A DNA stretch of 64,000 nucleotides from an uncultured Planctomycetales bacterium. GTDB taxonomy: Bacteria > Omnitrophota > Gorgyraeia > Zapsychrales > JAHFFX01. Within the stretch, counting starts at the first letter, position 1; each line of letters begins with the position of its first letter. Under the pieces are notes generated by a model. The model searched no databases, was not told the origin of the DNA, and was given only the letters and a program-made list of their open reading frames with translations. Below, one piece after another: positions 4,319-22,825 of this stretch. The position numbers were made by a program, and so were the translations under genes. The stretch lies in contig CAZTCI010000004.1 in NCBI GenBank assembly GCA_964612665.1, positions 78,376-142,375 on the forward strand, written 5' to 3'.

Positions 4319-4419
4319 TTCCTAAATTATGTATTGACCAGCCAACCAGAATGCCGTATGCTTTGCAACATGTGAGCATTGAAATAAGTTCACGCCTCTT
4401 TAACCTTTAAAAAGGCGCG

Positions 4420-5520
4420 TTGATGCGAAGAATTAAAAACGTTTTTCTATCCGCTATCCACCAGAATGCCGGCAAAACCACCATTGCCTTAGGCTTATAC
4501 AAAATTTTTAAAGACCGAAAACTTAAAGCCGCTTTTATGAAACCCGTCGGGCAAAAAGTGGTTAAAGTCAAAGACAAACAGGTTGATAAGGATTCCTATC
4601 TGATTGGAGAAGTTTATCATTGCTGGCAGCGTTTTAGAGAGATGAGCCCTATTACGCTTGAACGCGGATTTACCGAAAAATATATTTTCCATCCTGAAAA
4701 AGACCATTTGCGTTTGGAAATTGAAAAGGCCTTTAACCGCCTCAGCCGCGGGCAGGACGCTATTATAGTGGAAGGGACCGGTCATGCCGGCGTCGGCGCC
4801 GTCATTGATTTTTCAAATGCCGATGTCGCGCGGCTTTTAGGTTCGAAGGTCATTATTATTTCAGAAGGCGGCATCGGAAAAAGTATCGATGAAATCATTT
4901 TAAATAAAGCGCTGTTTGATTTAAATAACGTAGAAATCCTTGGTGTCATCATCAATAAAGTCCTGCCCGAAAAGTACCGCAAGATAAAAACCACTCTTGA
5001 ACAAGGATTAAAAAATAAAGGGATCCGGCTTTTGGGCATCATTCCGGTTGATCCGGTTTTAAAATCCCCGACGGTACGCCAGGTTATGAATCAAGCCGGT
5101 CTGGGACTTTTGTGTGGTAAAGAAAATTTAGATACGCATATCAATCATACGATCGTCGCAGCCATGGAACCGCAAAATATGATTACGCATTTAAGAGACG
5201 GCGCGCTCGTTATTACCTCTGGTGACCGTATTGACAATATGCTGGTTTCCATTAGCGCTCATCTCATTAGCCGCGGGACAAAATTTAATATCGCTGGCAT
5301 TATTTTAACCGGAGGCATGGTTCCTGACATTAAGATCATTGATCTTTTGAAAAAGAGCCGGATTTCCGTTTTGCTGTCTCCCCATGATACGTATACCGTG
5401 GCGGGAAAGATTGAATCTTTAGTTTGTAAAATTGAAAAGACCGACAAAGATAAAATCGCGCAAGCCACGCGTTTAGTCAGGAAATACGTGGATATCGAGA
5501 CGATTATCAAAAATTTATAA
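4420..5520 (+). CDS. Phosphotransacetylase N-terminal-like protein (AAA_26 P-loop-like plus DRTGG domain), lacking the PTA_PTB catalytic domain
   Basis: 366 aa. The N-terminal ...SAIHQNAGKTTIALGL is BioD/CobQ-like. ...GALVITSGDRIDNMLVSISAHL matches the DRTGG motif of the N-terminal regulatory half of long-form Pta (E. coli LLVTSADRPDVLVAA). No acetyltransferase domain follows. The start codon is TTG or ATG at 4420/4423. Confidence 0.55.
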   Translation: MMRRIKNVFLSAIHQNAGKTTIALGLYKIFKDRKLKAAFMKPVGQKVVKVKDKQVDKDSYLIGEVYHCWQRFREMSPITLERGFTEKYIFHPEKDHLRLEIEKAFNRLSRGQDAIIVEGTGHAGVGAVIDFSNADVARLLGSKVIIISEGGIGKSIDEIILNKALFDLNNVEILGVIINKVLPEKYRKIKTTLEQGLKNKGIRLLGIIPVDPVLKSPTVRQVMNQAGLGLLCGKENLDTHINHTIVAAMEPQNMITHLRDGALVITSGDRIDNMLVSISAHLISRGTKFNIAGIILTGGMVPDIKIIDLLKKSRISVLLSPHDTYTVAGKIESLVCKIEKTDKDKIAQATRLVRKYVDIETIIKNL

Positions 5521-5527
5521 CAACGAG

Positions 5528-6727
5528 ATGTCCAAGACGTCACAACAATCTATCTGGATTATCGATGCGCTGCGAACCGCAATTGCTCGTCCCGGACAGA
5601 GCCTGAATAATTTTTCGGCGGCGCAATTAAGCGCTGTTGTTATCCGTGATATTTTAAGCCGTAGCCGTATTTCTTTTAAGCTTGTTGAACAGTGTATTGT
5701 GGGAAATGCCGTCAGCGCCGGGACTGGACAGAATATCGCCCGCCAAGCAGCGGTGATCGCCGGGCTTCCTGATACTGTTCCTTCTTTTAGCGTCAATCAT
5801 GTTTGCGGTTCAGCCATGCAGGCGGTGATTTTGGCATCGCAATCTATTTTAGCGGGAGATCATAATTGCGTTATCGCCGGTGGCACCGAAAGTGCTTCAT
5901 TCAGTCCCTATCTTGAATTTAATAATAGAATGACAACTCAGGGTTCTTCAGTGATTGATGCAGGAGTTTTGGGACGCGTAGAAAGTTTGATTCACGACGG
6001 ATTATTTTGCCAATTGACGCGTATGCATATGGGCCAGCTCGCAGAATATCTTAGTCGGAAATTTGATATCAGCCGCAGCGTGCAGGATAAATTTGCGTTG
6101 GACAGCCACCGCAAGGCCTGCGCCGCGCAACAGGCCGGTAAATTCCGTGATGAAATTGTTCCTGTAAACATTTTACCGTATCAAGCATTTGACCGTGATG
6201 AACGGCCGCGGCGCAATATCGATGTATTAAAGTTAGGTGATTTACCGGCGGCGTTTCAAAAAAATGGAACCGTGACGGCCGGAAATTCATCGCCGCCTTC
6301 TGACGGCGCTTGCAATTTGATTATTGCTTCCAACGATTTTGTAAAGAAGTACCGGATAACGCCCAAGGCTAAAATTCTCGGTTATAGTTCAATCGCCGTG
6401 CCGCCTCAAGAAGTTTTTACCGCCGGCGTTACCGCTGTGAAAGTTTGTTTGAAGAAATGCGGGTTAAGGTTTAAAGATATTGATTTGTTTGAAATCGGAG
6501 AGGCGTTTGCGACGCAGGTGATTTACACGCGCGATCACTTAAAAATTCCGGATAACCAGATGAATGTTTGGGGCGGGGATATTGCTTTAGGTCATCCTTT
6601 GGGCGCGGCGGGCGGACGGATTTTAGTGACATTGATTCATGCTCTTCGCGATGCCAAGAAAAATATTGGTCTGGCGTGTGTTTGTCTCGGCGGAGGTGGC
6701 GCGTTGGCGATCGTCGTGGAAATTTAA
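5528..6727 (+). CDS. Acetyl-CoA C-acetyltransferase (thiolase family)
   Basis: 399 aa. ...NHVCGSAMQAVILASQSILAGDHNCVIAGGTESAS... is the thiolase N-terminal active-site Cys region, and the C-terminal ...CVCLGGGGALAIVVEI is the thiolase signature. Confidence 0.85.
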   Translation: MSKTSQQSIWIIDALRTAIARPGQSLNNFSAAQLSAVVIRDILSRSRISFKLVEQCIVGNAVSAGTGQNIARQAAVIAGLPDTVPSFSVNHVCGSAMQAVILASQSILAGDHNCVIAGGTESASFSPYLEFNNRMTTQGSSVIDAGVLGRVESLIHDGLFCQLTRMHMGQLAEYLSRKFDISRSVQDKFALDSHRKACAAQQAGKFRDEIVPVNILPYQAFDRDERPRRNIDVLKLGDLPAAFQKNGTVTAGNSSPPSDGACNLIIASNDFVKKYRITPKAKILGYSSIAVPPQEVFTAGVTAVKVCLKKCGLRFKDIDLFEIGEAFATQVIYTRDHLKIPDNQMNVWGGDIALGHPLGAAGGRILVTLIHALRDAKKNIGLACVCLGGGGALAIVVEI

Positions 6728-6812: not shown

Positions 6813-8054
6813 ATGACTAAAACCTTACCTTCGAGAGAAAAAAATAAAAAATTAAAGATTTCGCAAAATGAAGAACTGAAAATTTTGCGCACCATCGTCG
6901 ATATCACCAGTTCGGAGCTCGATTTGAATTTGATATTAAAAGAAGTCGTCAAGGTTGTCACCCAATTTACATCAGCGGATTCAGTCTTTATTTACCTCTA
7001 CGATAGTAAAAAAGAACATTTGGTGTTAATGGCTTCTAAAATTCCACATGACAAAATTCTTGGCAAAATTAATTTAAAAGCAGGCGAAGGGATTACCGGA
7101 TGGGTGGCTCAAGAAAATCGTCCCGTCGCCATCAAAAAGAACGCCTACAAAGATTCTCGCTTTAAAAGTTTTTATGTTCTCCCCGAAGATAAATATGAAG
7201 CTTTTCTTTCCGTTCCTATTGAATATAAGGCCAATACGATTGGCGTCATCAATGTTCAACATCGCCGGCCACATGAATATGCGACTGGCACGGTGAATTT
7301 AATTCAAACAATTGCCAAACAAGTCGGCGGTGTCATTGAAAACGCGCGTTTGTTTGAATTTACGAAACAAAAAGCCGCTCAGTTCGACAGTTTAATTAAA
7401 GTCAGTCATTCCATCAGCTCTGAGCATTATTTAGATGAGATCTTGGATCTCATTGTGGTTGTCACGGCGGAGATGTTAAATTCTAAGATTTGTTCGATCA
7501 TGCTGCTGGATGACAAAGGCGAAGAGCTTGTCATGAAGGCAACGCAGTCTTTGAGCAAAGACTATAAAACAAAACCAAACGTCAAAGTTGAAAAGAGTTT
7601 AAGTGGAGAAGTGATCAAATCTAAAAAACCGATTTCCGTTTATGATGTCCGTCAGGAAGAAAGATATTACTATCGTGATTTAGCCATTAAAGAAGAATTG
7701 ACGTCGATGTTGTCAGTGCCGATGATTCTTAAAGAAAAAGCGATTGGTATCATTAATGTCTATACAAAAACGCCGCATCATTTCAGCCAAGAAGAGATTG
7801 ATGTTCTGCAGATTGTCGCTAACCAAGCGGCGGTTGCAGTTGAGAATACCAAACTCATGCAAGAAGCCATGAAAGCTAAAGAAGCGCTTGAAACCAGGAA
7901 AATTATCGAACGCGCCAAAGGCATTCTGATGCGGATGAATAATTTATCCGAAGACGCCGCTTATAAACTCATTCATAAAAAAAGCATGGATTCTTGCCGT
8001 TCCATGAAGGAAATTGCCGAGTCGATTATTTTGATGTCTGAACTTCAAAAGTAA
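6813..8054 (+). CDS. GAF-GAF-ANTAR RNA-binding antitermination regulator
   Basis: 413 aa. Two GAF-like segments (...KAGEGITGWVAQENRPV..., ...KSLSGEVIKSKKPISVYD...). The C-terminal ETRKIIERAKGILMRMNNLSEDAAYKLIHKKSMDSCRSMKEIAESIIL matches the ANTAR consensus (ERAKGiLM...s..eAy..l...Sm). Confidence 0.8.
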   Translation: MTKTLPSREKNKKLKISQNEELKILRTIVDITSSELDLNLILKEVVKVVTQFTSADSVFIYLYDSKKEHLVLMASKIPHDKILGKINLKAGEGITGWVAQENRPVAIKKNAYKDSRFKSFYVLPEDKYEAFLSVPIEYKANTIGVINVQHRRPHEYATGTVNLIQTIAKQVGGVIENARLFEFTKQKAAQFDSLIKVSHSISSEHYLDEILDLIVVVTAEMLNSKICSIMLLDDKGEELVMKATQSLSKDYKTKPNVKVEKSLSGEVIKSKKPISVYDVRQEERYYYRDLAIKEELTSMLSVPMILKEKAIGIINVYTKTPHHFSQEEIDVLQIVANQAAVAVENTKLMQEAMKAKEALETRKIIERAKGILMRMNNLSEDAAYKLIHKKSMDSCRSMKEIAESIILMSELQK

Positions 8055-8068
8055 TTTGAGATTCTATA

Positions 8069-8097
8069 AATCGGCGCTTGACAATAAGCAAAGAAAA
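8069..8097 (+). promoter_or_regulatory. sigma70-type promoter P1 (TTGACA-N17-TATACT)
   Basis: TTGACA at 8069..8074, a 17-nt spacer, and TATACT at 8092..8097. The arrangement is near-identical to P2 at 8709..8737. Confidence 0.6.
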
Positions 8098-8143
8098 GAT
8101 ATACTTAAGTTGTTATTAAGGTCAATGAAGACCGAAGCAAGGT

Positions 8144-8197
8144 CAGGGCAAGGATGTCCGACGAGGTTTTGAAGCAGTAACCAAGTCGGATTTTTTT
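8144..8197 (+). terminator. Leader 1: conserved box CAGGGCAAGGATGTCCGAC plus intrinsic terminator (candidate ANTAR target)
   Basis: Stem TCCGAC(GAGGTT)...(AACCAA)GTCGGA followed by TTTTTTT at 8191..8197. The 19-nt box at 8144..8162 recurs at 8797..8815. Confidence 0.6.
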
Positions 8198-8226
8198 ATG
8201 TTGTAGAGCAGTTAAATAAGTTTTAA

Positions 8227-8281
8227 GGGCAAAGACGTCCTCTTTTAAAAAGCAAAGGTGCTTTTAAAAGGGGATTTTTTT
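8227..8281 (+). terminator. Second intrinsic terminator in leader 1, preceded by a third GGGCAAAG-CGTCC box
   Basis: AAGGGCAAAGACGTCC, then hairpin CCTCTTTTAAAA-agcaaaggtgc-TTTTAAAAGGGG, then ATTTTTTT. Confidence 0.5.
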
Positions 8282-8330
8282 ATGCCAAAACGGTTAAGGA
8301 AAACCAACAAAACGCGAAAGGAGAGATCTT

Positions 8331-8474
8331 ATGAGACAACAAAACTTTGTTAGAGCATCTCACCGAATGTTAATCAAAAAAATGCGTGATTATGGAATTC
8401 ATTCCTCTAATCGGTTGATAATTTCCTCGAAAGAAGGGGCTTTTGGGAAAGGAGGAAACAAACGATGTCATTAG
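8331..8474 (+). CDS. Hypothetical small protein (47 aa) with strong SD (AAAGGAGAG)
   Basis: ORF MRQQNFVRASHRMLIKKMRDYGIHSSNRLIISSKEGAFGKGGNKRCH, read directly from the sequence. The RBS is 7 nt upstream. It is not in the ORF track because it is under 60 aa. Confidence 0.25.
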   Translation: MRQQNFVRASHRMLIKKMRDYGIHSSNRLIISSKEGAFGKGGNKRCH

Positions 8475-8671
8475 ACCACTCGATCGTGTCGGCTACCGAC
8501 ATATTTATGGTAGAAAAGTCAGTTATTGAAGCGGCGGCTTATAAAATGAGTACTCTTAATAATAGAGTTGATCCTTTGATTGCAGAAAATTTGAGCGAGC
8601 TTCAAGATGGCAGTAGGAGTAAAAACCTCGATATATTAAGTACTTCGAACGAAAAGTTAAAACGATTTTAA
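8465..8671 (+). CDS. Hypothetical small protein (68 aa) with strong SD (GGAAAGGAGG)
   Basis: ORF from the track. The GGAAAGGAGGA RBS sits 8 nt before the ATG. The ORF lies between terminator-gated leader 1 and promoter P2. No recognisable domain. Confidence 0.3.
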   Translation: MSLDHSIVSATDIFMVEKSVIEAAAYKMSTLNNRVDPLIAENLSELQDGSRSKNLDILSTSNEKLKRF

Positions 8672-8708
8672 TTTTAGCTCGACGGAACTTATGGCTCTTA
8701 AAAAAAAC

Positions 8709-8737
8709 TTGACAAAGAAATAGCAGGCTTATATACT
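8709..8737 (+). promoter_or_regulatory. sigma70-type promoter P2 (TTGACA-N17-TATACT), a duplicate of P1
   Basis: TTGACA at 8709..8714, a 17-nt spacer, and TATACT at 8732..8737. Confidence 0.6.
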
Positions 8738-8796
8738 TTGGGCAATTTTAAAGGCATTGATGTCTTTAAAAATTTCTGGAATCGAATAATCAGGAA

Positions 8797-8849
8797 CAGG
8801 GCAAAGGTGTCCGACTTATATCCGTTTTGCGGATGGGGTCGGATTTTTT
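8797..8849 (+). terminator. Leader 2: conserved box CAGGGCAAAGGTGTCCGAC plus intrinsic terminator upstream of amtB (candidate ANTAR target)
   Basis: Stem TCCGAC...GTCGGA with an inner ATCCG/CGGAT stem, followed by TTTTTT at 8844..8849. The box matches 18 of 19 nt of the leader-1 box. Confidence 0.6.
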
Positions 8850-8963
8850 ATTTTTAGCCCTAAAGAGGGCTTAAGATTATTCCAGACGCGCGGATGGGGC
8901 GGTGAAGTCCTCTTTAGGTTTCAAATAAAAAGCGTAATCGTATTTACAAAGGGAGGATAAGTC

Positions 8964-10196
8964 ATGGATCAGATTAATAGCGGAGATACAGCATGGGTTT
9001 TGGCGTCATCAGCGCTGGTTTTGCTTATGACACCGGGGTTGGCTTTCTTTTATGGAGGCATGGTTAGAAGGAAGAATGTTTTAAGTATTTTAATGCAGTG
9101 TTTTACAGTTATTTGCATTGTTAGTTTGCAATGGGTTTTGTTTGGATACAGCCTGGCTTTTGGGCCGGGCAATGCTTTTATTGGAGGTTTACAGTGGTTT
9201 GGATTAAATGGCGTCGGGCTTGATCCTTACGCAGATTATTCAGCTACGATTCCTCATCAAGCTTTTATGATTTTCCAGGCGATGTTTGCGGTTATTACGC
9301 CTGCTTTGATCCTTGGCTCTTTTGCCGAAAGAATGAAATTCTCAGCTTTTATTCTCTTCATTCTTTTGTGGGCAACTTTTGTTTATGACCCGATCTGCCA
9401 TATGGTTTGGGCGGTTGGCGGCTTAGTCAGAAACTGGGGCGCGCTTGATTTCGCCGGCGGAACGGTCGTTCATATTAATGCCGGTATCGCTGGTTTATGC
9501 ACCGCTTTACTTCTTGGCAAGAGATTAGGTTATGAAAATAGATCTTTCGCGATTCACAATCTTCCCTGGACGGTATTAGGCGCTGGTTTATTGTGGTTCG
9601 GCTGGTTTGGGTTTAATGCCGGAAGTGCTTTGGCTGCGAATGGATTGGCCGCGAGTGCTTTTGTTGTGACCAATACGGCAACGGCAGCAGCAGGTTTGAG
9701 CTGGGCTCTTCTGGAATGGAAATTTAATGGAAAGCCTACGATGTTAGGGATGGTCAGCGGTGCGGTCGCAGGTTTGGTTGCTATTACACCGGCCTCTGGC
9801 TATGTGAATGTTATGGGATCAATTGTGATCGGTCTTTTGGTCAGCGTTTTCTGCTACATCGCAGTCCTTTTGAAAGCCAAATTTGGCTATGATGACTCAT
9901 TGGATGCGTTTGGTGTCCACTGCATCGGCGGGATTTGGGGAGCTATTGCAACAGGCTTCTTTGCCACCAAAACTATTAATTCCGGCGGTGGAGACGGTTT
10001 ATTTTTCGGTAATCCCGCGCAGGTTCTTGTTCAGGTAAAGGCGGTTCTCGTGACTATTATCTATTCTTTTGTGGTCACGGCTATTATCTTTAGGATAGTG
10101 GACATGATTGTTGGTGTGAGAGTAACTTCTGAAGACGAAGTTTTGGGTCTAGATCTTACTCAGCATCATGAACGCGCATATACAATTTTAGAATAG
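8964..10196 (+). CDS. amtB: Ammonium transporter
   Basis: 410 aa. Multi-TM protein. ...AWVLASSALVLLMTPGLAFFYGGMVRRKN... and ...DFAGGTVVHINAGIAGL... are Amt/MEP signatures. Confidence 0.9.
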   Translation: MDQINSGDTAWVLASSALVLLMTPGLAFFYGGMVRRKNVLSILMQCFTVICIVSLQWVLFGYSLAFGPGNAFIGGLQWFGLNGVGLDPYADYSATIPHQAFMIFQAMFAVITPALILGSFAERMKFSAFILFILLWATFVYDPICHMVWAVGGLVRNWGALDFAGGTVVHINAGIAGLCTALLLGKRLGYENRSFAIHNLPWTVLGAGLLWFGWFGFNAGSALAANGLAASAFVVTNTATAAAGLSWALLEWKFNGKPTMLGMVSGAVAGLVAITPASGYVNVMGSIVIGLLVSVFCYIAVLLKAKFGYDDSLDAFGVHCIGGIWGAIATGFFATKTINSGGGDGLFFGNPAQVLVQVKAVLVTIIYSFVVTAIIFRIVDMIVGVRVTSEDEVLGLDLTQHHERAYTILE

Positions 10197-10242
10197 TTTT
10201 GCATTTAAAATTGATTCCGATGAGGACTAAGGAGGAATATAA

Positions 10243-10584
10243 ATGAAATTAATTATGGCTATTATCCAACCGCATAGATTGGAAGAAGTGAAAAAAGCTT
10301 TATATGAAGCTGATGTGAACTTAATTACTGTCAGTGAAGTTTTAGGTCATGGCCGGCAAAAAGGTGTCGACGAATTTTATCGTGGCACTAAAGAAAGCGG
10401 CAATCTTTTAAGAAAAATTCAGTTAGAGATTGCGGTTAATGAAAATTTTGTCGAACCAACGATTAAAGCCATCATCAAAGGTGCACGGACTGGAAAAATC
10501 GGGGATGGAAAAATATTTGTTCTCGATTTGCCGCGGTGTATCCGCATCCGTACCGGCGATGAAGGGTCGCAGGCGATAGGTTAA
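10243..10584 (+). CDS. glnK: Nitrogen regulatory protein P-II
   Basis: 113 aa. [41 protein letters not shown]...FYRG... is the P-II fold with a T-loop Tyr. Its position immediately after amtB is typical of glnK. Confidence 0.88.
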
Positions 10585-10588
10585 AAGA

Positions 10589-10641
10589 CCAGTGGGCGCC
10601 CCGCATTCGCCGATCAAAGGCTAGGCGGGGCGCCCGTGGTT
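10589..10641 (+). terminator. Rho-independent terminator after glnK
   Basis: GTGGGCGCCCCGC...GCGGGGCGCCCGTGG hairpin, followed by TTTCATTT. Confidence 0.55.
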
Positions 10642-10754
10642 TCATTTGACGCCATTCCCAACCTCTGTTACAATCCTTTACAAAATTTTAGACACATAAA
10701 TGTTTTCCGATTTTTATCAACACCAAAATTTTAAATCAAAAAGGAGACAATTTC

Positions 10755-12941
10755 ATGGCTCAACAACGCGAAGGTGCCCGCAGGCAAGTCGTTCAAGATT
10801 CCGTCGAGAATCAGAAGACTTTGCTGCAAGAACTTTTAAATGAAGGAAAACAAAACGGTAATGGCGCTGGATTGTCTGAATTTTACGGCAAAGACGTCTT
10901 TAGTTTAAAGACCATGCGCAATTACCTTTCAGAAAAAGCTTACAACTCATTAGTTTCAACCATCCAACAAGGTGGCAAACTTGACCCGAACATCGCCGAT
11001 GAAGTCGCTGACGCGATGAAGACCTGGGCTGTTTCAAAAGGCGCCACCCACTTTACACATTGGTTTCAACCACTCACCGGCACGACCGCCGAAAAACACG
11101 ATTCGTTCATTTCCCCGGACGGCGAAGGCGGAGTTCTCTTAAAATTTTCAGGCAAAGAACTTATCCAAGGCGAACCCGACGCCTCGAGTTTCCCTTCAGG
11201 CGGCTTAAGAGCTACCTTTGAAGCGAGAGGTTATACGGCTTGGGATCCAACGAGCCCTGCTTTTATTAAAGAAGGTCCTGAAGGCGCCACCCTTTGTATT
11301 CCGACGGTATTCTGCGGTTACAACGGCGAAGCGTTAGACAAAAAGACACCGTTGTTGCGTTCGATGGCTGCGTTATCCAAGCAAGTTTGCCGTCTGGCGA
11401 CATTGTTTGGTATTGATACTAAAGGAAAACGCGCTTACGCGACACTCGGACCGGAACAAGAATATTTTTTAATCGATAAAGCTCATTACGAAGCGCGTCT
11501 GGATTTAGTCCAAACCGGCCGCACGCTTTTCGGCCGCAAACCTGCCAAACATCAGCAGCAAGAAGATCATTATTTTGGCGCGATCAAACCGCGCGTTATT
11601 GCTTTTATGGAAGATTTGGATCGAACGTTATGGCGATTATCCATTCCAGCCAAAACACGGCATAACGAAGTAGCTCCTGCCCAATATGAAATTGCTCCAG
11701 TTTTCGAAGAGTTAAATTTAGCCGTCGATCACAATATGATTGCGATGGAAATCATGCGTCAAACCGCTGATAAACATGGTTTTGTTTGTTTGCTTCATGA
11801 AAAACCGTTTGCCGGCGTTAATGGTTCCGGAAAACACAACAACTGGGCCATCGTTGGTCCCGACGGGAAAAATTGGTTGTATCCTGGCAAAACGCCGCAT
11901 GACAACGCTAAATTCTTAACCATCCTTTGCGCGGTTATTAAAGGTGTTGATACTTACGCTGGTTTGTTGCGTGCAACCGTTGCGACCGCCGGCAACGATC
12001 ATCGCCTCGGAGCTAACGAAGCGCCGCCGGCGATTGTTTCCATCTTTTTAGGCGACCAACTTTATGACATCATTGAACAAATTGAAAAAGGCGGCGCTAA
12101 AAGTTCTAAAGAAGGCGGCACCATCCACATTGGTGTCGATTCTTTACCCGTCCTTCCACGTGATGCAACCGATCGTAACAGAACATCACCTTTCGCTTTT
12201 ACCGGTGCTAAATTCGAATTCCGCGCGGTTGGTTCCAACATGAATCCGTCGGGCCCGAATGTAGTTCTAAACACAATCGTCGCCGAGGCGTTGGATGAAA
12301 TCTGTACGGAATTAGAAGCCGCCGTTAAAGCCAAAAAGGATTTCAATTCGGCTTTACAAAAAGTTCTTCAAGATACTATTAAAAAACACAAGCGCGTTCT
12401 TTATAATGGTGATAATTATATTGATCAGTGGCATGCCGAAGCGAAGAAGCGCGGGCTTCCGAATATGAAGTCAACGCCCGAATCGCTGCAAGTTCTTAAA
12501 GAGGAAAAGAACATCCGTGTTTTCGAAAAGCACGGTGTCTTGAGCCGCAAAGAACTGGCTTCGCGTTTTGAAATTTATAAGCATGCTTACGAAACGATCA
12601 TTCAGCTGGAAGGCAGCTGTGCGTCAACTGTTGCGCGCACCGAAATTCTTCCGGGTGCGATAGCTTTCCAAAGAGAACTCGCGGAAACAATTAAAATCGT
12701 CGGCGCCGCCGGCAAAACAACCGGAGCTAAAAAACTTCTTAAAGAAGTTTCCGGCTTGATTGATGAAGCCTTGGCCGCTTGTGATAGTTTGGACACAGCC
12801 TTGGCGAAACATGATTCAGCCAAGACCAATGCGGCGATGGCTAAACTTCGCGCCGCCATCGACAGTTTAGAGGCGTTGGTTCCGGCAGAAAAATGGCCGC
12901 TTCCGTCGTACGCAGAGATGTTACTCATGAATGCCGAGTAA
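10755..12941 (+). CDS. glnN: Glutamine synthetase type III
   Basis: 728 aa, the GSIII size class. A catalytic glutamine-synthetase domain sits in the middle (...[11 protein letters not shown]...). The RBS is AAAAGGAGA. Confidence 0.85.
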
Positions 12942-12996
12942 AAATTGAAACAAGGGGCTTCGTGAGAATAACCGCCCCTGTTAGAATAGAAATTAA

Positions 12997-13030
12997 AGCC
13001 CAGGGGTTGAAACACACCCCTGGGCTTTTT
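12997..13030 (+). terminator. Rho-independent terminator after glnN
   Basis: AGCCCAGGGGT-tgaaacac-ACCCCTGGGCT followed by TTTT. Confidence 0.65.
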
Positions 13031-13204
13031 AATGAGCGCATTATTTGCCATCGAGATTACGAACTTTTATCTCGATGGCAAATAGAAGCGCGAATTAACC
13101 CCCGTAAAAGATAGGTTGTTAATTCACGCTTTTTACGGGGTGTTCGACGCCCAAAGAGCAGATTGTTTTTAGTCTAACAAGTGAGGTTATGGAGCGAGCA
13201 TTAA

Positions 13205-13912
13205 ATGATTTTAATTGCGAAGCACATAGATATCGAAGGTCCGGGAACGTTCGGAGATTTTTTAAAAGAACGTAAACTTCCCTTTACGATCGTTGAACTT
13301 GGTTCCAGCGAGAAATTACCAAGAGATCTGAAAGAAATTCAAGCCGTTGTTGTCTTAGGCGGTCCAATGAATGTTTATGAAGAAGATAAATATCCTTTTT
13401 TAAAAGAAGAAAACCGTTTTATTCAAAACGTTGTTCAAGAGGAAATTCCTTATCTCGGCATTTGTTTGGGTTCTCAGTTGTTGGCCAAGGCCTGCGGTGC
13501 GCCGGTCGTTAAGTCGCCGGTCAAAGAAGTCGGCTGGTATAAAATCCGTTTAACGCCCGACGGCAAAAAAGATCTTTTCCTCAAAGGGTTCGATCCTAAG
13601 ATTGATATTTATCACTGGCACGAAGACATGTTTCAAATTCCGTCAAACGGCGTTTTGTTAGCCACAAGTGACGGCTGTCCGCATCAAACCTTTCGCGTCG
13701 GCAAAAACGCCTACGGCATTCAGTTTCATATTGAAGTGACGGACAAAAGTATTAAGGAATGGTCCGATGAGTACTGCCAAAAAGATCTGCCGGGCCGGCA
13801 GGAACAACGTGCCGCAATGCTTGAAGGTTACGCAAAAAACAAAGAAGCGTTTCGCAAACAAGCGTTTCAAATTTATAATAATTTCTTAGAGCTTATAAGG
13901 AAAGAAAAATGA
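13205..13912 (+). CDS. Class-I glutamine amidotransferase (GMP-synthase-like GATase1)
   Basis: 235 aa. ...PYLGICLGSQLLAKACGA... has the catalytic Cys, and ...YGIQFHIEV... the His/Glu pair of the GATase1 triad. Confidence 0.7.
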   Translation: MILIAKHIDIEGPGTFGDFLKERKLPFTIVELGSSEKLPRDLKEIQAVVVLGGPMNVYEEDKYPFLKEENRFIQNVVQEEIPYLGICLGSQLLAKACGAPVVKSPVKEVGWYKIRLTPDGKKDLFLKGFDPKIDIYHWHEDMFQIPSNGVLLATSDGCPHQTFRVGKNAYGIQFHIEVTDKSIKEWSDEYCQKDLPGRQEQRAAMLEGYAKNKEAFRKQAFQIYNNFLELIRKEK

Positions 13913-15615
13913 TTGGAGTCGGATTAATGCGTCTCGCCCTTGCTCAAATTAATCTTACCGTCGGAGATTTGCTTGGTAATCAAGCGAAGATTATTGAGTC
14001 GATTGCTCAGGCACGGCTGAAGGAAGCGGATGTTGTCGTTTTTCCGGAAATGGCCGTAGCCGGTTATCCGCCGGAAGATCTTTTATATAAGGAACATTTC
14101 ATTCGCGACAACCTCCGCGCCTTGCAAAAAATAATTGCCCAAACTCAGAATATAACCGCGATTGTTGGTTTTGTTGACCACGATAAAAATAAAAATTTGT
14201 ACAACGCGGCGGCTGTTATTTCAAACGGTCAATTAAAAGATGTTGTCCACAAACGAGACCTTCCAAATTACGGTGTCTTCGATGAGAAAAGATATTTTGT
14301 GGCAGGAAAAAGTGCGGGTTTATATAATATTAATGGTCACAGCGTCGGGATTAGTATTTGCGAAGATATTTGGAAAGGCGATGGATTATCCGTTGCGCAA
14401 GCCAAAGCGGGCGCCAAGATTTTGATTAACATTTCAAGTTCCCCTTACTATGAAGGTAAAATTCGCGTCCGTGAAAAAATGTTAAAAGCGCGCGCGTGTG
14501 AGACAAAAGCTTTTATTGCTTATGTGAATTTGGTCGGCGGGCAAGATGAATTGGTTTTCGACAGCGGGAGTTTTGTTTTTAATCCAAAAGGAAAAATCCT
14601 GGCGCGGGCCAAACAGTTTGAGGAAGAATTGTTGGTATGTGACGTAAAACTTCCCGCGAATAAGATTTCTAAAAAATTTATTAAAGTCAGTGCCCCAAAG
14701 TTAGTTCATAAAAAAATTAAGATTGAAAACGTTTTGGCGCCTCTTCTCGAACCGGTTGCCGAAGTTTATCAAGCTTTGGTTGTTGGGACGCGCGATTATG
14801 TTCAAAAGAATGGATTCAAAAAAGTTTTGATCGGCTTAAGCGGCGGCATTGATTCTTCGCTGGTTGCGGCCATCGCTTGTGATGCGCTGGGACGGGAGAA
14901 TGTCGTCGGAGTTACAATGCCTTCGCGGTATTCTTCTCAAGAAACACTGGCCGATGCGAAAATTTTGGCGAAGAATTTAGGAATCCGCTGTATCGAAGTA
15001 CCAATAGAAGATATTTTGAAATCTTATTTCGGGACTTTAAGCAAAGAATTCGCCGGCCTCGCGCCTAATATTGCCGAGGAAAATATTCAGGCGCGAATCC
15101 GTGGGAATATTCTTATGGCATTCTCCAATAAATTCGGCTGGCTGGTCTTGACGACGGGCAACAAAAGTGAAATGGCGGTCGGTTATTGCACATTGTATGG
15201 CGACATGGCGGGCGGATTTGCCGTTATTAAGGATGTTCCCAAAATAAAGGTTTATGAGTTATGTTCGTATAGAAATAAAAAAGCCGGCAGACTGCTTATT
15301 CCGCAAAGTGTTTTTGACCGGGCTCCGACAGCTGAATTGCGTGAGAATCAAAAAGATGAAGATTCCTTACCACCTTATAAAGAATTAGATCCGATATTGC
15401 AGAGTTATGTAGAGAAACGAGAGGATCTCTCTAAAATACTTAAACATTATAAGAACTGCGAATGGGTCAAAGACACAATCCGCCGGGTTAATAGCAGCGA
15501 ATATAAGCGCCGCCAGGCGCCGCCCGGTGTTAAAATATCCGCGAGGGCGTTTGGAAAGGATTGGCGGTTGCCGATTACAAACAAATATAAGGAATTTTAT
15601 TCTGCTTCGCCCTAG
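13909..15615 (+). CDS. nadE: Glutamine-dependent NAD+ synthetase (nitrilase domain plus NAD synthetase)
   Basis: 568 aa. The N-terminal CN-hydrolase is ...VVVFPEMAVAGYPPEDL...ICEDIW.... The C-terminal PP-loop is GLSGGIDSSLVAA. Confidence 0.88.
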   Translation: MIGVGLMRLALAQINLTVGDLLGNQAKIIESIAQARLKEADVVVFPEMAVAGYPPEDLLYKEHFIRDNLRALQKIIAQTQNITAIVGFVDHDKNKNLYNAAAVISNGQLKDVVHKRDLPNYGVFDEKRYFVAGKSAGLYNINGHSVGISICEDIWKGDGLSVAQAKAGAKILINISSSPYYEGKIRVREKMLKARACETKAFIAYVNLVGGQDELVFDSGSFVFNPKGKILARAKQFEEELLVCDVKLPANKISKKFIKVSAPKLVHKKIKIENVLAPLLEPVAEVYQALVVGTRDYVQKNGFKKVLIGLSGGIDSSLVAAIACDALGRENVVGVTMPSRYSSQETLADAKILAKNLGIRCIEVPIEDILKSYFGTLSKEFAGLAPNIAEENIQARIRGNILMAFSNKFGWLVLTTGNKSEMAVGYCTLYGDMAGGFAVIKDVPKIKVYELCSYRNKKAGRLLIPQSVFDRAPTAELRENQKDEDSLPPYKELDPILQSYVEKREDLSKILKHYKNCEWVKDTIRRVNSSEYKRRQAPPGVKISARAFGKDWRLPITNKYKEFYSASP

Positions 15616-15782
15616 ACAATATAGATGGTATGGCTTCGCAGCAATTGTTTCTTCAATCAATATTGCTTCAAAGAAGAATAATTTGCATATTTTAAAAAAG
15701 ACGTTAAAATGTTTACTCCAATTGAGGATACAAAATTTTCCATCTCGATTTTGGGACGAAAATGACGAGGAGATAAGTTTCA

Positions 15783-18700
15783 ATGGCTTCATTTTATCCA
15801 CCTAAACAAGGACTTTATGATCCGCAGTTTGAACACGACAGTTGCGGGGTGGGTTTTATTGTTAACATCAAAGGTCATAAAAGTCATGCCATTGTCCGTA
15901 ATGGCATCCAAATTCTTGAAAATTTAACGCACCGCGGCGCTTGCGGTTGTGACCCAGAGACCGGCGACGGCGCTGGGATCATGATGCAGATGCCGGATGC
16001 TTTTTTTAGAAAAGAATGTTCCAAATTAAATATCAGCCTGCCCGCCGAAGGTGAATATGGCTGCGGTATCGTCTTTCTTCCGCCGAGTCTTGAAGACCGC
16101 AATATTATGGAAAGATGGACCGAGCATCTTATTCATGAAGAAGGTCAAAAGTTTTTAGGCTGGCGTGATGTTCCAAATGATCCTACCAAAATCGGGCGCG
16201 TCGCCCGAAGCGTTAAGCCCGCCTTTAAACAATTGTTTATCGGCCGCGGCGCTAACACTAAACCTGAAGATTTCGAACGAAAATTGTACGTCATTCGCAA
16301 ACGACTTTACAACAAAGTTCAAGCTTCCACGTTAAATCAACGCAATTACTATTATTTTTGCAGTCTCTCCAGCAAAACGCTCGTCTATAAAGGTCAGTTG
16401 ATGAGTGAACAGCTCGACCGTTTCTTTCCTGACTTGTCTGAACCGGCGATGACCTCAGCCCTGGCCATGGTGCATTCACGTTATAGTACAAATACTTTTC
16501 CGTCCTGGTCACTGGCACATCCTTATCGTGTTATTGCGCATAATGGTGAAATTAATACGCTGCGCGGCAACATCAATTGGATGCATGCGCGTGAAATGCA
16601 ATTTATTTCCGATGTTTGGAAAGATGATATCAAAAAGATTCTGCCGATCGTTGTTCCACATGGAAGCGACACGGCCACATTTGATAATGTGATTGAAATG
16701 CTTATCCTAAGTGGACGCTCTTTGCCTCACGCGATGATGATGATGATTCCCGAAGCTTGGAGTGGACATGAAAGTATGCCGGCTGAGAAAAAAAATTTTT
16801 ATGAATATCATTCCTGCTTTATGGAACCGTGGGACGGCCCAGCATCCATTGCTTTTACTGACGGACGTTATATGGGTGCCGTGTTGGACCGCAACGGCCT
16901 GCGACCTTCACGTTATACGATCACTAAAGATGATATGGTGATTATGGCTTCCGAAACCGGTGTTCTGCCCGTACCGCCTGAAAATGTTGTTAAAAAAGGC
17001 CGCCTGGAACCAGGCAAAATGTTTTTAATCGATACGCAAGAAGGCCGCATCATTGATGACAAAGAATTAAAATATGCTTATGCCACGCGCCAACCGTACG
17101 GAAAATGGCTTAAAGATAATTTAATTGAAATCAATTCCTTACCTGAACCAAAAAAAGTTCAAGGCCTAAACGAAAAAACGCTTTTGCTTCGTCAAAAAGC
17201 TTTTGGCTACACTTTGGAAGATTTAAAACTTCTTTTGACTCCGATGGCGATCGACGGCGAAGAAGCGACGGGTTCCATGGGCGCGGATACGCCGCTTGCG
17301 GTTTTAAGTTATCGGCCGCAGCCGCTTTTTAATTATTTCAAACAATTGTTTGCGCAGGTCACCAATCCGCCCGTCGATGCCATCCGCGAAGAAGTCATTA
17401 TGGCCGAAGATGTAATGGTTGGTCCAGAGCAAAATCTTTTGCAAGAAACGCCCGAACATTGCCGGCGGCTTCGACTGCATCATCCGGTCATCACCAATGT
17501 CGAGCTCGAAAAAATCCGTCATGTCCGTAAAAATGGCCTTAAGTCTAAAACTCTCACCATGCTGTTCAACAAAGATGAAGGTTTAAAAGGTTTGGAAACA
17601 GCCCTCGATCGCCTTTTTGCGAATGCTGATGAAGCCATTGAAAAAGGTTATTCGCTTTTGATTTTATCCGACCGCGATGTGGATCAAGATTCTGTTCCCA
17701 TGCCGTCTTTGCTTGCGTGTTCCGCACTGCATCATCATTTGATCCGTCGGGGAACGCGCACTAAAGTCAGTATTATTTTGGAAACCGGTGAAGCCCGCGA
17801 GATGCATCATTTTGCGGTTTTGATTGGCTACGGCGCCAACGCGATCAATCCTTATTTGGCTTTTGAAACAATTGAAGCTGAAATTCTTAAAGGGCATTTT
17901 CCTAAAGAATTAACTTATACTCAGGCTGAAAAGAATTTTATTAAATCCACCCGCAAAGGGCTTTTCAAAATTATTTCTAAGATGGGGATTTCAACGATCC
18001 AATCTTATTGCGGCGCGCAAATTTTTGAAGCCGTCGGGCTTGGCGATGAAGTGATTGATAAATATTTTACGGCGACACCTTCACGGATTGGCGGCGTCGG
18101 CATTGAAACACTGGCCGAAGAAATGATCAAACGCCACGACCAGGCTTTTCCAAGATTTCAGACCGACGGAAAAATGCTCGAGCAAGGCGGCGAATACGCC
18201 TGGCGTCGCGACGGAGAACATCATCAATACAATCCGCAAACAATTGCGCTCTTGCAGCACGCCGTGCGCACGGGCGATTATCCGCTTTTTAAGAAATACG
18301 CTGAATTAATCAACAGTCAAAATACTAATCTCGCGAATATCCGCGGTTTGCTTAAATTTAAAAAAGGAAACCCAATTCCTATTGATGAAGTTGAATCAAC
18401 GTCAGAAATCGTCAAACGTTTTGCGACGGGCGCGATGAGTTATGGTTCTATTTCCAAAGAAACCCACGAAACGCTCGCGATTGCGATGAACCGGCTCGGC
18501 GGTTTCTCTAATACTGGTGAAGGCGGCGAAGATCCGGCCCGATTCAAAAAAGATCCCAACGGCGATTGGCGCCGCAGCCGCATTAAACAAGTTGCACAGG
18601 GACGTTTTGGTGTGACGATTGAGTATTTAGTTAACGCCGATCAACTTCAAATTAAAATGGCGCAGGGCGCCAAACCCGGCGAGGGCGGACAGCTTCCGGG

Positions 18701-20321
18701 ACATAAAGTCAGTCCAGAAATCGCTAAGACCCGGTATACAACGCCGGGTGTTGGATTAATTTCTCCGCCGCCGCATCACGATATTTATTCCATTGAAGAT
18801 TTGGCGCAGCTTATTCACGATTTGAAAAATGCAAACCCGCGCGCTGATGTGAGCGTGAAGCTCGTGTCTGAAGTCGGCGTCGGAACAGTTGCCGCCGGCG
18901 TTTCTAAAGGAAAATCCGACCACGTTTTAATTAGCGGTTTTGAAGGTGGGACAGGTGCGTCTCCACAAACATCAATCAAACACGCCGGGCTTCCGATGGA
19001 ATTAGGAATCGCTGAGACACAGCAAGTTTTAGTCATGAATGATTTACGCGGACGGATCCGAGTTCAGACCGACGGGCAATTGAAAACCGGACGCGATGTG
19101 GTGATTGCGGCGATGCTGGGCGCTGATGAATTTGGTTTTTCAACAATTGCGCTGGTGTCTCTGGGCTGTATTCTTTTACGCAAGTGTCATTTGAACACGT
19201 GTTCCGTCGGTGTGGCAACGCAGGATCCTGAGTTGCGCAAGAAATTCGCGGGTAAGCCGGATTATGTTGTGAATCTTTTTACGTTTATCGCTCAAGAATG
19301 CCGTGAAATCATGGCCGAGCTTGGTTTTAAAAAATTTGATGAGTTGGTTGGCCGGGTCGATATGTTGGAAACTCAAGAAGTCATCACACATTGGAAAGCC
19401 AAGGGTTTGGACTTAACTAACATTTTGCACCGGCCGGATGTTCCGCCAGAGGTTGCAATTCGTCATGTGGGAAGACAGGACCATGGTTTGGAAAAGGCAC
19501 TCGACAATCGTTTGATTCAATTAAGTGAAGATGCGATTGAACATCAAAAGCCGGTTGAGTTTGATGTTGAGATTCGTAATACGTGCCGCACCGTTGGGAC
19601 AATGCTTAGCTCTGAAATCGCACGGCGCTATGGTTTAAAAGGTTTGCCAGACAATACAATTCAAATCAAATTTGAAGGTTCCGCGGGCCAGAGCTTCGGC
19701 GCTTTTCTGGCGCACGGCATCACGTTGACGCTCGAGGGCGATGCCAACGATTACGTCGGCAAAGGTTTGTCCGGCGGGCGGATCATTGTGTATCCGTCTA
19801 AGAAGGCGACTTTTATTCCCGAACAAAATATTTTAGTGGGGAATGTTGTTTTATACGGCGCGATCTCTGGTGAAGTTTTTTTTAGAGGATTAGCCGGCGA
19901 ACGTTTTGCGGTGCGTAATAGCGGCGCCAAAGCGGTTGTCGAAGGTGTGGGCGATCATGGTTGTGAATATATGACTGGCGGATGCGTTGTTGTCTTAGGT
20001 CCGACGGGCCGTAACTTCGCAGCCGGAATGAGTGGTGGCATTGCGTATATTTGGGACCGCGATAAAAAATTTGTTGACCTTTGTAATAAAGGAATGGTTG
20101 ATCTCGTCCCTGTCGAAGATGCCGAAGACATTAAAGAACTGAAAACTTTAATTGAAAAGCACGCCGAGTTCACCGGCAGCACGGTCGCCAAGGGCGTCCT
20201 GGGCTTGTGGTCAAGCACCTTGCCGCAGTTTGTGAAGGTTTATCCGAAGGATTACCGTCGGGTGCTGGAAGAAGCGGCGAAAATTAAGCAGGAACCAACG
20301 TATTCCAAAGTGGTTCAATGA
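15783..20321 (+). CDS. gltB: Glutamate synthase large subunit
   Basis: 1512 aa. The N-terminal [11 protein letters not shown] Ntn-amidotransferase Cys1 is present, together with FMN-binding, Fe-S and C-terminal GXGXG beta-helix regions. Confidence 0.95.
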
Positions 20322-20557
20322 GCCCAACTGTTTTCAGGTATAAGAAATATCGGTTTTTCTTTTTTTCGCGAGAAGAAAAGAGGATGCATATTCACATTAC
20401 CTGTCCTGATGGTGAAGCAAAATTTTGGTTGGAACCGCTGGTGACCTTAGATTGTTACTGGGGATTGGATACAAAGCAGATAAAAGAATGTCAAAAGATT
20501 ATAGAGGAACATAAACATGAAATTGCGAAATCATGGAAGAAGCATTTCCAAAATTGA
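20318..20557 (+). CDS. DUF4160 family protein
   Basis: 79 aa. ...[35 protein letters not shown]... matches the DUF4160 signature (Fx[20 protein letters not shown]). The ATG overlaps the gltB stop (ATGA). Confidence 0.65.
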
Positions 20558-20777
20558 AGTTTTAAATATTTCCGAACATGGATTTTGGATTTGTGTTCAA
20601 GGCAAGGAACATTTTCTTCCATTTCAAGAATTTCCTTGGTTTAAGCAAGCAACTTTGAGTCAGATACAAGACGTCGAGCTATTACATAGACATCATCTCC
20701 ATTGGCCGGCATTGGATATCGATTTGGAGTTGGAGTCTTTAAGTAATCTTGAGAAATATTCTTTGGTTGCACGTTGA
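20517..20777 (+). CDS. DUF2442 family protein
   Basis: 86 aa. ...GKEHFLPFQEFPWFKQATLSQIQDVELLHRHHLHWPALDIDLELESL... matches the DUF2442 signature (PWF..A...Q..N.EL..g.GLHWP.LD.DLS). It overlaps the DUF4160 gene by 41 nt. Confidence 0.6.
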   Translation: MKLRNHGRSISKIEVLNISEHGFWICVQGKEHFLPFQEFPWFKQATLSQIQDVELLHRHHLHWPALDIDLELESLSNLEKYSLVAR

Positions 20778-20801
20778 TTTAAGGTTAAGGATTGAAAGAT
20801 T

Positions 20802-22241
20802 ATGGGTGACATCAAAGGTTTCATGAAATACACGCGGCAGGATTTTAAGAAAGAGCCTGTCGGCGAGCGTTTAAAACATTGGAAAGAATTTACGAAGTTT
20901 CTTCCTGAGGAGGAATTAAGAAAACAGGGCGGGCGTTGCATGGATTGCGGCGTGCCGTTTTGCCAGTCGGGATGTCCCATTGGAAATATTATTCCGGATT
21001 GGAATGATTTGGTTTTTAACAACCGCTGGCAGGAAGCAATCGACCGTCTTCATAAGACAAATAATTTTCCTGAATTTACCGGGCGCGTTTGTCCGGCGCC
21101 GTGTGAGAACGCCTGTGTGCTTGCCATCAATCAACCCGCCGTTACGATTAAAAATATCGAAGTCAGTATCATTGAAAAAGCTTATGAAGAAGGCTGGATC
21201 AAACCCGAACCGCCGAAAGAACGCACCGATTACACCGTTGCCGTCGTCGGCTCTGGCCCGGCGGGACTTGCCTGCGCGGATCAATTAAATAAATTAGGAC
21301 ATAAAGTTACGGTTTATGAAAAGAACGAAGTCATCGGCGGGCTTTTAACGCTTGGCATTCCGGATTTCAAATTGGAAAAATCCGTTGTCGAACGCCGAAT
21401 CAAACGCATGCATCAGGAAGGTGTAAAATTTAAAACTGGTGTGCATGTCGGTGTTGATGTTTCCGCCAAGGAATTAAAAGAAAAATATGATGTGCTAGTT
21501 TTATGCGGCGGTGCGGAACAGCCGCGTGAACTGCCGATTCCCGGACGCGATCTCGAAGGAGTTTATCAGGCGATGTTTTTCTTGCCGCAACAAAACCGGC
21601 GAGGTTTGGGCCAAACGATTGATCCGAAAATCAGCGTGACCGCCAAAGGCAAACGCGTCGTCATTTTAGGCGGCGGCGATACAGGTTCTGACTGTTTAGG
21701 AACTTCCAACCGTCAGGGCGCGGTTTGGGTGAAACAATTCGAACTTCTTCCTGAACCTCCTAAAGAAAGACCCGCAGATAATCCCTGGCCGCAATGGGCG
21801 TTTATTCACCGGACTTCAACATCTCATGAAGAAGGTGTTGACCGTGATTATAGTATTCTGACAAAAAGTTTTAGCGGCCACGACGGGAAATTAAAAAAAA
21901 TGCATGGTGTGCGTTTATCATTTGGTGACAAAGATCCCAAGACCGGCCAGCGGCCGATGAAAGAAATTCCGGGATCGGAATTTGAATTTGAAGTTGATAT
22001 GGTTTTGCTTGCGATGGGTTTTACCGGCCCGGTTAAAAAAGGAATGATTGAAGAATTGGGTCTGGAATTGGACGCGCGTGGCAACATTAAAAATGACCGC
22101 AACAAAATGACTAATGTGCCGGGTGTTTTTACCGCCGGTGACATGGCCCGCGGCCAGTCGCTGGTTGTTTGGGCGATTAATGAAGGACGCAACGCCGCCG
22201 AGGGTGTTCATCAATACTTGATGAACAAAGCAACTGTTTAA
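20802..22241 (+). CDS. gltD: Glutamate synthase small subunit (NADPH-dependent)
   Basis: 479 aa. A Cys-rich N-terminus (CMDCGVPFCQSGCP...CPAPCENAC) and Rossmann motifs (VAVVGSGPAG, VVILGGGDTG). Confidence 0.9.
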   Translation: MGDIKGFMKYTRQDFKKEPVGERLKHWKEFTKFLPEEELRKQGGRCMDCGVPFCQSGCPIGNIIPDWNDLVFNNRWQEAIDRLHKTNNFPEFTGRVCPAPCENACVLAINQPAVTIKNIEVSIIEKAYEEGWIKPEPPKERTDYTVAVVGSGPAGLACADQLNKLGHKVTVYEKNEVIGGLLTLGIPDFKLEKSVVERRIKRMHQEGVKFKTGVHVGVDVSAKELKEKYDVLVLCGGAEQPRELPIPGRDLEGVYQAMFFLPQQNRRGLGQTIDPKISVTAKGKRVVILGGGDTGSDCLGTSNRQGAVWVKQFELLPEPPKERPADNPWPQWAFIHRTSTSHEEGVDRDYSILTKSFSGHDGKLKKMHGVRLSFGDKDPKTGQRPMKEIPGSEFEFEVDMVLLAMGFTGPVKKGMIEELGLELDARGNIKNDRNKMTNVPGVFTAGDMARGQSLVVWAINEGRNAAEGVHQYLMNKATV

Positions 22242-22825
22242 TGAGTGCATTACGATCCAAAGGCGTCATCACAATCGGCTGGTTGATTGTTATTTTGGCG
22301 GCCCTGCAGATTCAACAAAGTTTTGATTACCACAATCTTCTTAAAATTTACAAAACATTGTATCGCCCATTTTGGGGGCCGATTTTTTATTTCGTGACGG
22401 TTTTTCTTCTGTTCATTGAATTGATATTAGGTTGGAATATCTTATGTCTTAAAGAATGGGCGAGAAAAGGTGTTCTTATTCTCATCGGATTTTACATCGT
22501 CATGACTTTTTCGATGTCTTTGACGGTCGATAAGAATTACCTTCAATATATTCAAGGAACATTTCTTCAACTCGAAGAGTTATCTCAGCGTTTAAATATC
22601 CGATGGGAAAAACACGCGGCGGTTTCCAATACCGCGAGTCCAGTTTATCAAGAAGAAAGACGCGTTTATAATCAAACAAGAACTTTAAGTAATTTATTTT
22701 TGTGGTTTAATATAGGTGTAATTGTTCTTAAATTTTTTGTGTGGTATGTGGCAGCCGTCATCTTCTTTTTGCATCCCAGGGTCAAGGCTCAGTTTCAGCG
22801 TGCGCGTAAATTTGAACATCAATAG
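22241..22825 (+). CDS. Hypothetical integral membrane protein (about 4 TM)
   Basis: 194 aa, hydrophobic helices, no recognisable motif. Confidence 0.4.
   Translation: MSALRSKGVITIGWLIVILAALQIQQSFDYHNLLKIYKTLYRPFWGPIFYFVTVFLLFIELILGWNILCLKEWARKGVLILIGFYIVMTFSMSLTVDKNYLQYIQGTFLQLEELSQRLNIRWEKHAAVSNTASPVYQEERRVYNQTRTLSNLFLWFNIGVIVLKFFVWYVAAVIFFLHPRVKAQFQRARKFEHQ

Follow-up and report, generated by a model that had tools for sequence, protein, structure and literature searches.

The DNA analysed here (referred to as the window) is a 64,000-nucleotide (nt) stretch of contig CAZTCI010000004.1 (assembly GCA_964612665.1) from an uncultured bacterium of the Omnitrophota, and the subject of the analysis is a pair of small genes with DUF4160 and DUF2442 domains located between gltB and gltD, which encode the large and small subunits of glutamate synthase. 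All four genes are on the + strand. The gltB gene (15783..20321) encodes 1512 amino acids (aa) with the Pfam domains GATase_2, Glu_syn_central, Glu_synthase and GXGXG, and reading of the sequence showed that its TGA stop codon shares an ATGA overlap (20318..20321) with the start codon of the first open reading frame (ORF) of the pair. This ORF1 (20318..20557, 79 aa) matches PF13711 (DUF4160) and is a DhiT-like predicted toxin gene, and ORF2 (20517..20777, 86 aa) matches PF10387 (DUF2442) and is a DhiA-like predicted antitoxin gene. The two ORFs share 41 nt of dual-coding sequence (20517..20557), and ORF2 is preceded by a Shine-Dalgarno (SD) sequence, AGAGGAA (20503..20509), found inside conserved Glu-Glu codons of ORF1, the GAGG core of which ends 9 nt before the ORF2 ATG. 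A 24-nt spacer (20778..20801) leads from the ORF2 stop to the start of gltD (20802..22241, 479 aa, Pfam Fer4_20 and Pyr_redox_2) and contains the gltD SD, AAGGA (20787..20791). In the window, gltD thus starts 480 nt after the end of gltB, compared to the 0–30 nt that are usual in relatives. The C-terminal tail of GltB is of normal length and aligns with relatives up to the residues KQE, and the gltB stop codon falls within the conserved ATGAGY start of the inserted pair itself. An earlier annotation of this DNA made from the letters only (the sequence-only reading) had given the same coordinates, the same ATGA overlap and the same 41-nt overlap, and all of these were correct when the sequence was read again.

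Both junctions of the pair recur, with 100% identity, in four contigs (L001–L004) that were assembled separately from four sequencing runs. Since the same junctions are present in independently assembled contigs, an assembly artefact, in which a cassette from another organism was joined into the operon, was dismissed. The GC content of the insert, which is below that of the window, is what such a chimera would have in its favour; it is hardly credible given the identical junctions in the four contigs in addition to the source contig, and given that both junctions are seamless and in frame.

The family assignments made in the sequence-only reading were confirmed by Pfam profile scores far above chance. 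ORF1 matched PF13711 with an E-value of 1.3e-13 and 51.4 bits (cut-off 23) over profile positions 2–65 of 65, and ORF2 matched PF10387 with an E-value of 6.8e-14 and 52.3 bits (cut-off 23.9), so that both scores were about twice the curated cut-off. The short motifs on which that annotation had relied map to invariant columns of both family alignments. ORF1 retains 23 of 23 subfamily-invariant residues and ORF2 retains 10 of 10. More than 7000 homologues of ORF1 were found, and those with 65–80% identity come from six or more named groups at the level of phylum or class. Relatives were found in only four plasmids and in none of the phage records, and the nearest homologues on enterobacterial plasmids (Pantoea) showed 39% identity over residues 24–77. 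No second copy of the pair was detected within the window by tblastn, and neither the 79-aa ORF1 nor GltD matched any record when looked up by exact sequence.

In public gene calls (NCBI and Logan, including those for L001–L004) ORF1 is shortened to 57 aa, starting from an internal ATG at 20384 (Met23), which removes two conserved N-terminal strands of the protein. The start codon in the ATGA overlap is the true one, because the best homologues listed are nearly all 79 aa long and because residues 3–22 hold invariant positions (P3, T4, Y11, R12, F13, F15, F16, S17, E19, E20, and R22). Automated toxin-antitoxin (TA) surveys may assign the wrong length to family members whose genuine start codon overlaps the preceding gene, and would misread the window locus. 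An AlphaFold2 (AF2) model of ORF1 consisted of five strands and two helices (mean predicted local distance difference test score, pLDDT, 86.6). The AF2 model of ORF2 matched PDB entry 3k8r, a structural-genomics structure of DUF2442-like type, with a probability of 0.99 and a template modelling (TM) score of 0.58, and in sequence searches against PDB chains neither protein had a match with an E-value below 0.4. In these models the 41-nt overlap codes for the C-terminal helix of ORF1 and for a low-confidence N-terminal tail of ORF2.

The pair had been described in the sequence-only reading as a cassette of unknown function that is sometimes regarded as TA-like, a description that is out of date, as DUF4160/DUF2442 pairs constitute the DhiTA family of type II TA systems (PMC8198452, PMC12724237). 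In Dickeya dadantii 3937, the first gene encodes DhiT (DUF4160), which stops both Dickeya and E. coli from growing normally, and this inhibition is abolished by co-expression of DhiA (DUF2442); dhiT and dhiA are co-transcribed from a promoter that is repressed by about 50% by the antitoxin and by 70–99% by the complex (PMC8198452). The window pair resembles the Dickeya system in having the same Pfam domain pair, the unusual toxin-first order and an overlapping bicistron. It differs in that the Dickeya system has its own repressed promoter and genes that overlap by only a few nt, whereas the window copy is without a promoter of its own, is fused to gltB through the ATGA, and shows an overlap of 41 nt, as is typical for members of its subfamily. 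A single-domain DUF4160 first gene and a DUF2442 second gene in a toxin-first overlapping unit were all found in the window, and an autoregulated promoter upstream of the toxin gene was not.

The second experimental comparison is a plasmid-borne pair from Thermus thermophilus, named the Persistence-Enhancing Module, which raises plasmid persistence and gave no transformants in Thermus when the plasmid was without the second ORF (PMC12724237). This last result supports the toxin-first, antitoxin-second logic. Domain pair and order are as in the window, although the Thermus module stabilises a replicon and encodes longer proteins (DUF4160, 87 aa; DUF2442, 92 aa), and the window copy is chromosomal and lies inside an operon. 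The Thermus module proteins were not detected in the plasmid collection by tblastn at E 1e-5. The Menshen antiphage system likewise employs DUF4160 as an effector domain; the authors of that study noted that the majority of DUF4160 proteins have this domain only and are followed by DUF2442, and they set these pairs apart from the Menshen context (PMC12065111). ORF1 does not correspond to the DUF4160 embedded in NsnC of nsnABC, being a 79-aa single-domain protein encoded between gltB and a DUF2442 gene. By analogy with the characterized members of the family, ORF1 would be expected to be toxic and ORF2 to neutralize it.

To place the insertion, one genome per species was scanned with GltD, which gave 59 loci, 58 of which hold both gltB and gltD. 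The closest ones are metagenome-assembled genomes (MAGs) of Omnitrophota type with 67–82% GltD identity, which puts the window within or close to this phylum. Relatives of DUF4160/DUF2442 beside gltBD were detected by tblastn in none of the 58 loci, so that gltB and gltD are uninterrupted by the pair in all of them, including the closest (82% GltD identity). The gap between the two genes was 30 nt or less in 44 of the 58, some of which overlap, and ranged from -1 to 23 nt in four close relatives (L005, L007, L008, and L009). Thus, the pair is an insertion and not a lineage-wide accessory of glutamate synthase, in line with how the sequence-only reading had seen it. A local deviation in base composition, proposed there as a further check, was also found: GC was 0.365 across the pair compared to 0.439 for the window, within the lowest 2.6% of 460-nt segments (z of about -2.2 for both ORFs). 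This dip gives only modest support for a foreign origin, since some native small genes are as AT-rich as the pair. In the junction alignment, the window spacer (TAAGGATTGAAAGATTATG) was similar to the native spacer of L007 (TAAGGAGTTCGTAAAGCAGATG), SD included. Because this spacer and its SD resemble a native spacer and the GltB tail is normal, the foreign segment is essentially the two ORFs alone, about 460 nt.

Altogether, we consider the window pair to be an intact DhiTA-type type II TA cassette, with the toxin gene first and the antitoxin gene second, which was acquired horizontally by an Omnitrophota-like lineage and became inserted precisely between the stop codon of gltB and the ribosome-binding site of gltD; the probability of this reading as a whole is put at about 0.7.

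Another small gene was found at the same junction in L006, the closest relative (82% GltD identity), where positions 5404..6000 contain an unrelated gene for a 139-aa retropepsin-like aspartyl protease (PF13975/PF13650). This gene is bracketed by GC-rich hairpins, and a long terminator-like inverted repeat is located just before gltD. In this clade, the site between gltB and gltD seems to be permissive, and small accessory genes appear to land there repeatedly.

A location between two subunit genes and a translational overlap with gltB are also what would be expected of lineage-specific accessory subunits, or of an assembly factor, of glutamate synthase. Such a role was judged extremely improbable and is effectively excluded. 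Besides being missing from all 58 related gltB-gltD loci, the pair belongs to a family shown experimentally to be toxin-antitoxin; the cassette is elsewhere found beside guaA, folP, trpG, glmM, rpoD, ftsI, groEL, ispD, and other genes, and L006 carries the unrelated protease gene at the same site. The module is most likely a selfish element for addiction or defence, with tolerance on both sides between the element and its location, rather than a component of glutamate synthase.

The organization of the cassette was compared in 85 related loci (L064–L148), in which the relatives of ORF1 are 56–76% identical to the window ORF1. In all 85, the DUF4160 gene is succeeded by a DUF2442 gene. The two genes overlap by exactly 41 nt in 67 of these loci and by 38–50 nt in the rest, and the toxin gene nearly always starts with ATGAGY. 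The 41-nt overlap, which the sequence-only reading had pointed out for this locus, is therefore a hallmark of the family and no local peculiarity, and its significance had been overstated. An SD-like motif (GAGG, provided by the Glu-Glu codons of the toxin gene) precedes the antitoxin start in 77 of 86 loci; one was found before the toxin gene in 13 of 72 loci and was missing in the other 59. In 32 of 73 non-redundant loci, the toxin start is preceded by a sigma-70 promoter that agrees with the consensus at 9 or more of 12 positions and whose -10 box ends 5–8 nt (mostly 6 nt) before this start, compared to a rate of 1.4% when the same scan was anchored at random positions. The typical promoter is TTGACA-17-TATAcT. 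This distance between -10 box and start codon, together with the scarcity of SD motifs, predicts that the toxin mRNA is leaderless. Several of the promoters are bracketed by locus-specific inverted repeats, such as GAGAAAT...ATTTCTC in L112 and CGAAAT...ATTTCG in L093, which may be operators.

The related cassettes thus share with the window copy the ATGAGY start, the 79-aa toxin, the internal SD, the 41-nt overlap and an antitoxin of about 86 aa. Unlike the window copy, they mostly have a near-consensus promoter and are often flanked by duplications of host sequence, neither of which is present in the window. Predicted leaderless toxin mRNA, a fixed 41-nt overlap and duplicated host ends were not described in the searched literature on these domains.

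No sigma-70-like promoter was found on the + strand between 18658 and 21121. The best match anchored at the ORF1 start agreed with the consensus at only 6 of 12 positions, and a remnant promoter at this place was rejected. No consensus SD was found upstream of ORF1, no convincing terminator was found within the insert from gltB to gltD, and no Rfam regulatory RNA was found near the locus. The operator sequences through which autoregulation is mediated in Dickeya are presumably absent from the window together with the promoter region. This loss of the promoter, and presumably of the operators, is the main departure of the window locus from a canonical type II module.

These features suggest the following mode of expression, in which co-transcription and coupling are inferred from the arrangement of the genes. 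The pair would be transcribed only as part of the gltB-gltD mRNA. As the toxin gene has neither a 5′ end of its own nor a consensus SD, its translation is probably coupled to termination of gltB, ribosomes that terminate at the ATGA being predicted to reinitiate there. The antitoxin would be translated independently from the GAGG in the Glu-Glu codons of the toxin gene, which could keep it in excess. The mRNA of gltD would have to run through the 460-nt insert, with translation starting from the SD that gltD retains 10 nt upstream of its ATG. The statement in the sequence-only reading that gltD expression depends on read-through of the pair is therefore plausible for transcription, in view of the missing promoter and terminator between gltB and gltD, and does not hold for translation, since gltD keeps its own AAGGA and is not translationally coupled to the pair.

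The same features could indicate a silenced or decaying passenger whose promoter was lost when it inserted, which would be expressed at very low levels and be too young to have decayed. In addition to the missing promoter and the missing consensus SD before ORF1, an antitoxin substitution (Pro82Ser) at a nearly invariant position and the failure of public annotation to recover the full ORF1 point in this direction. Against it, both frames are intact with all of the invariant residues mentioned above, the antitoxin gene keeps its internal SD and its overlap of exactly 41 nt with the toxin gene, and the insert lies within a transcribed operon and is not transcriptionally silent if gltD is expressed. 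We consider decay of this kind unlikely.

Some observations weigh against the reading of the pair as an intact, horizontally acquired DhiTA cassette. The likeness to the Dickeya and Thermus proteins consists of the shared Pfam domain pair and gene order and not of a direct alignment, and the AF2 model of ORF1 gave no fold match in PDB. Residue 82 of ORF2 is Ser where Pro is nearly invariant, which is the sole notable deviation in this protein. The nearest genome without the pair shows only 82% GltD identity. Finally, the promoter scan was based on the sigma-70 consensus, the promoters of Omnitrophota are uncharacterised, and a promoter in the 3′ end of gltB is possible.

How unusual the position is depends on which feature is considered. 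Related cassettes are habitually found just 3′ of, or between, housekeeping genes in the same orientation, usually with their own promoter. Their neighbours include guaA, a gltD-like oxidoreductase gene, folP, glmM, rpoD, ftsI, groEL, ispD, hemE, and msrB, and this diversity of upstream neighbours disfavours a functional tie to glutamate synthase. A preference for glutamine-amidotransferase genes (gltB, guaA, trpG, and the gltD-like gene) was considered and rejected after a Pfam survey of 55 upstream neighbours, in which guaA represented one lineage and the rest were diverse. A stop-start fusion was found in one other lineage (L127/L130/L132), where trpE and trpG are followed by a TTGA overlap, the pair, 14 nt and a UPF0047 gene; other apparent -4 overlaps with an upstream gene proved to be spurious high-GC ORFs. 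Hence, what is uncommon about the window copy is the loss of the promoter and the ATGA fusion; the sequence-only reading overstated how unusual a core operon is as context, since housekeeping surroundings are the usual habitat of these cassettes. No relevant report of TA modules in gltBD operons was found in a literature search. In E. coli, the mazEF module lies directly downstream of the housekeeping gene relA in the same orientation; mazEF differs from the window pair in having its own autoregulated promoter and an antitoxin-first order, and in not being wedged between two subunit genes of one enzyme.

Small genes in comparable positions were observed at other places. In L130, an MNT-HEPN (nucleotidyltransferase/HEPN) TA pair is located at 4036..4766, about 0.6 kb downstream of the trpG-coupled pair; small TA cassettes cluster after trpEG in this genome. 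In the window, an AT-rich ORF (54180..54596, GC 0.31, up to 138 aa) with a weak DUF3592 match lies between purF (52804..54183) and pyrG (54583..56271). As listed, this ORF overlaps purF by 4 nt and pyrG by 14 nt, its start codon is uncertain, and it is possibly another case in this genome of a small gene that was inserted between core genes. Directly after gltD, with a 1-nt overlap, a 194-aa ORF (22241..22825, GC 0.37) without a Pfam match was found. A homologue with 46% identity follows gltD in L006, whereas L005, L007, and L008 go straight to a TPR protein gene, which makes the post-gltD position another variable slot in the operon.

The related cassettes also gave information on how the module may move. 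Direct repeats of local host sequence, 21–209 nt long and 69–95% identical, flank the unit of promoter and pair in 24 of 78 related loci, and often correspond to the 3′ end of the upstream housekeeping gene. Examples are L112, L120, L115, L105/L111 (guaA), L076 (gltD-like), L139 (folP), L097, L116, and L134; L081 is a plain tandem duplication of the cassette. At guaA in L112, the 136-nt copies (2709..2844 and 3496..3631) differ at eight positions in seven codons, all synonymous, and have the same stop codon. Likewise, all five codons that differ between the copies of the gltD-like gene in L076 are synonymous, and the differences in L139 (folP), L116, and L120 are synonymous or conservative. 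Had one copy been dead and decayed at random, most of the changes should be non-synonymous; the likeliest origin of the two copies is therefore a pair of functional alleles, those of donor and recipient. This suggests, for the family rather than the window copy and from a limited sample of loci, that the cassette carries along the gene end of its previous host and integrates by homologous recombination, for which the route could be Campbell-type or homology-facilitated illegitimate recombination.

At the window insert, the best direct repeat scored 12, which equals the 95th percentile of the null distribution, and no integration scar was detected. A short target duplication (TTAAGG twice at 20779..20790, or TGA on both sides) was considered and set aside as too short to be told from chance. 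An integration event of the kind described above, followed by trimming, could have given rise to the window copy, or it arrived by a different route. In a wider and doubtful interpretation, the whole subfamily would consist of mobile units of about 0.65 kb (a promoter for leaderless mRNA, toxin and antitoxin) that spread from genome to genome with a housekeeping 3′ end of the previous host as a portable homology arm, and the window copy would be a streamlined, possibly domesticated end-state with the toxin slaved to gltB translation. If this were true, growth control would be coupled to nitrogen assimilation via toxin synthesis that follows that of GltB.

The surroundings of the operon bear on this last point. 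The pair lies in a co-oriented cluster (6813..22241) that encodes a GAF-ANTAR regulator, amtB, P-II, a type III glutamine synthetase (GSIII), a class-I glutamine amidotransferase (GATase), nadE, gltB, and gltD; of 48 ORFs compiled from the window, 44 are on the + strand. Because the operon sits in a nitrogen-assimilation cluster, nitrogen status probably influences how strongly the module is expressed. A domesticated switch has been considered on this basis, in which the toxin would be made only with gltB translation, and growth arrest or persistence would be tied to nitrogen status; shut-off of the cluster would stop the resupply of the presumably labile antitoxin and free the toxin. The position of the pair within the nitrogen-assimilation supercluster, the loss of its own promoter and operator region with the ATGA fusion to gltB, and the intactness of both ORFs are consistent with such a switch. 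It is nevertheless improbable, as the arrangement is limited to one species-level lineage, related cassettes adjoin many unrelated housekeeping genes, and glutamine-amidotransferase genes, which at first seemed over-represented among the neighbours, come down to trpG and a single guaA lineage.

The window locus is thus a promoterless, operon-embedded variant of a known TA family, and is of interest as a curiosity more than as a novel type of system. It provides an example of a small TA cassette that lodges freely in a core metabolic operon of a compact genome, and of a cassette that can remain undamaged after losing its promoter and the operator sequences that would accompany it. It is a natural test case both for the function of a type II system when expression is dictated by a host operon and for stop-start coupling as the means by which the toxin:antitoxin ratio is set. 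The family-wide features of its relatives are more interesting leads than the window copy itself: predicted leaderless toxin mRNAs, the fixed 41-nt overlap and the duplicated ends of host genes would, if confirmed, be new information on how DhiTA modules move.

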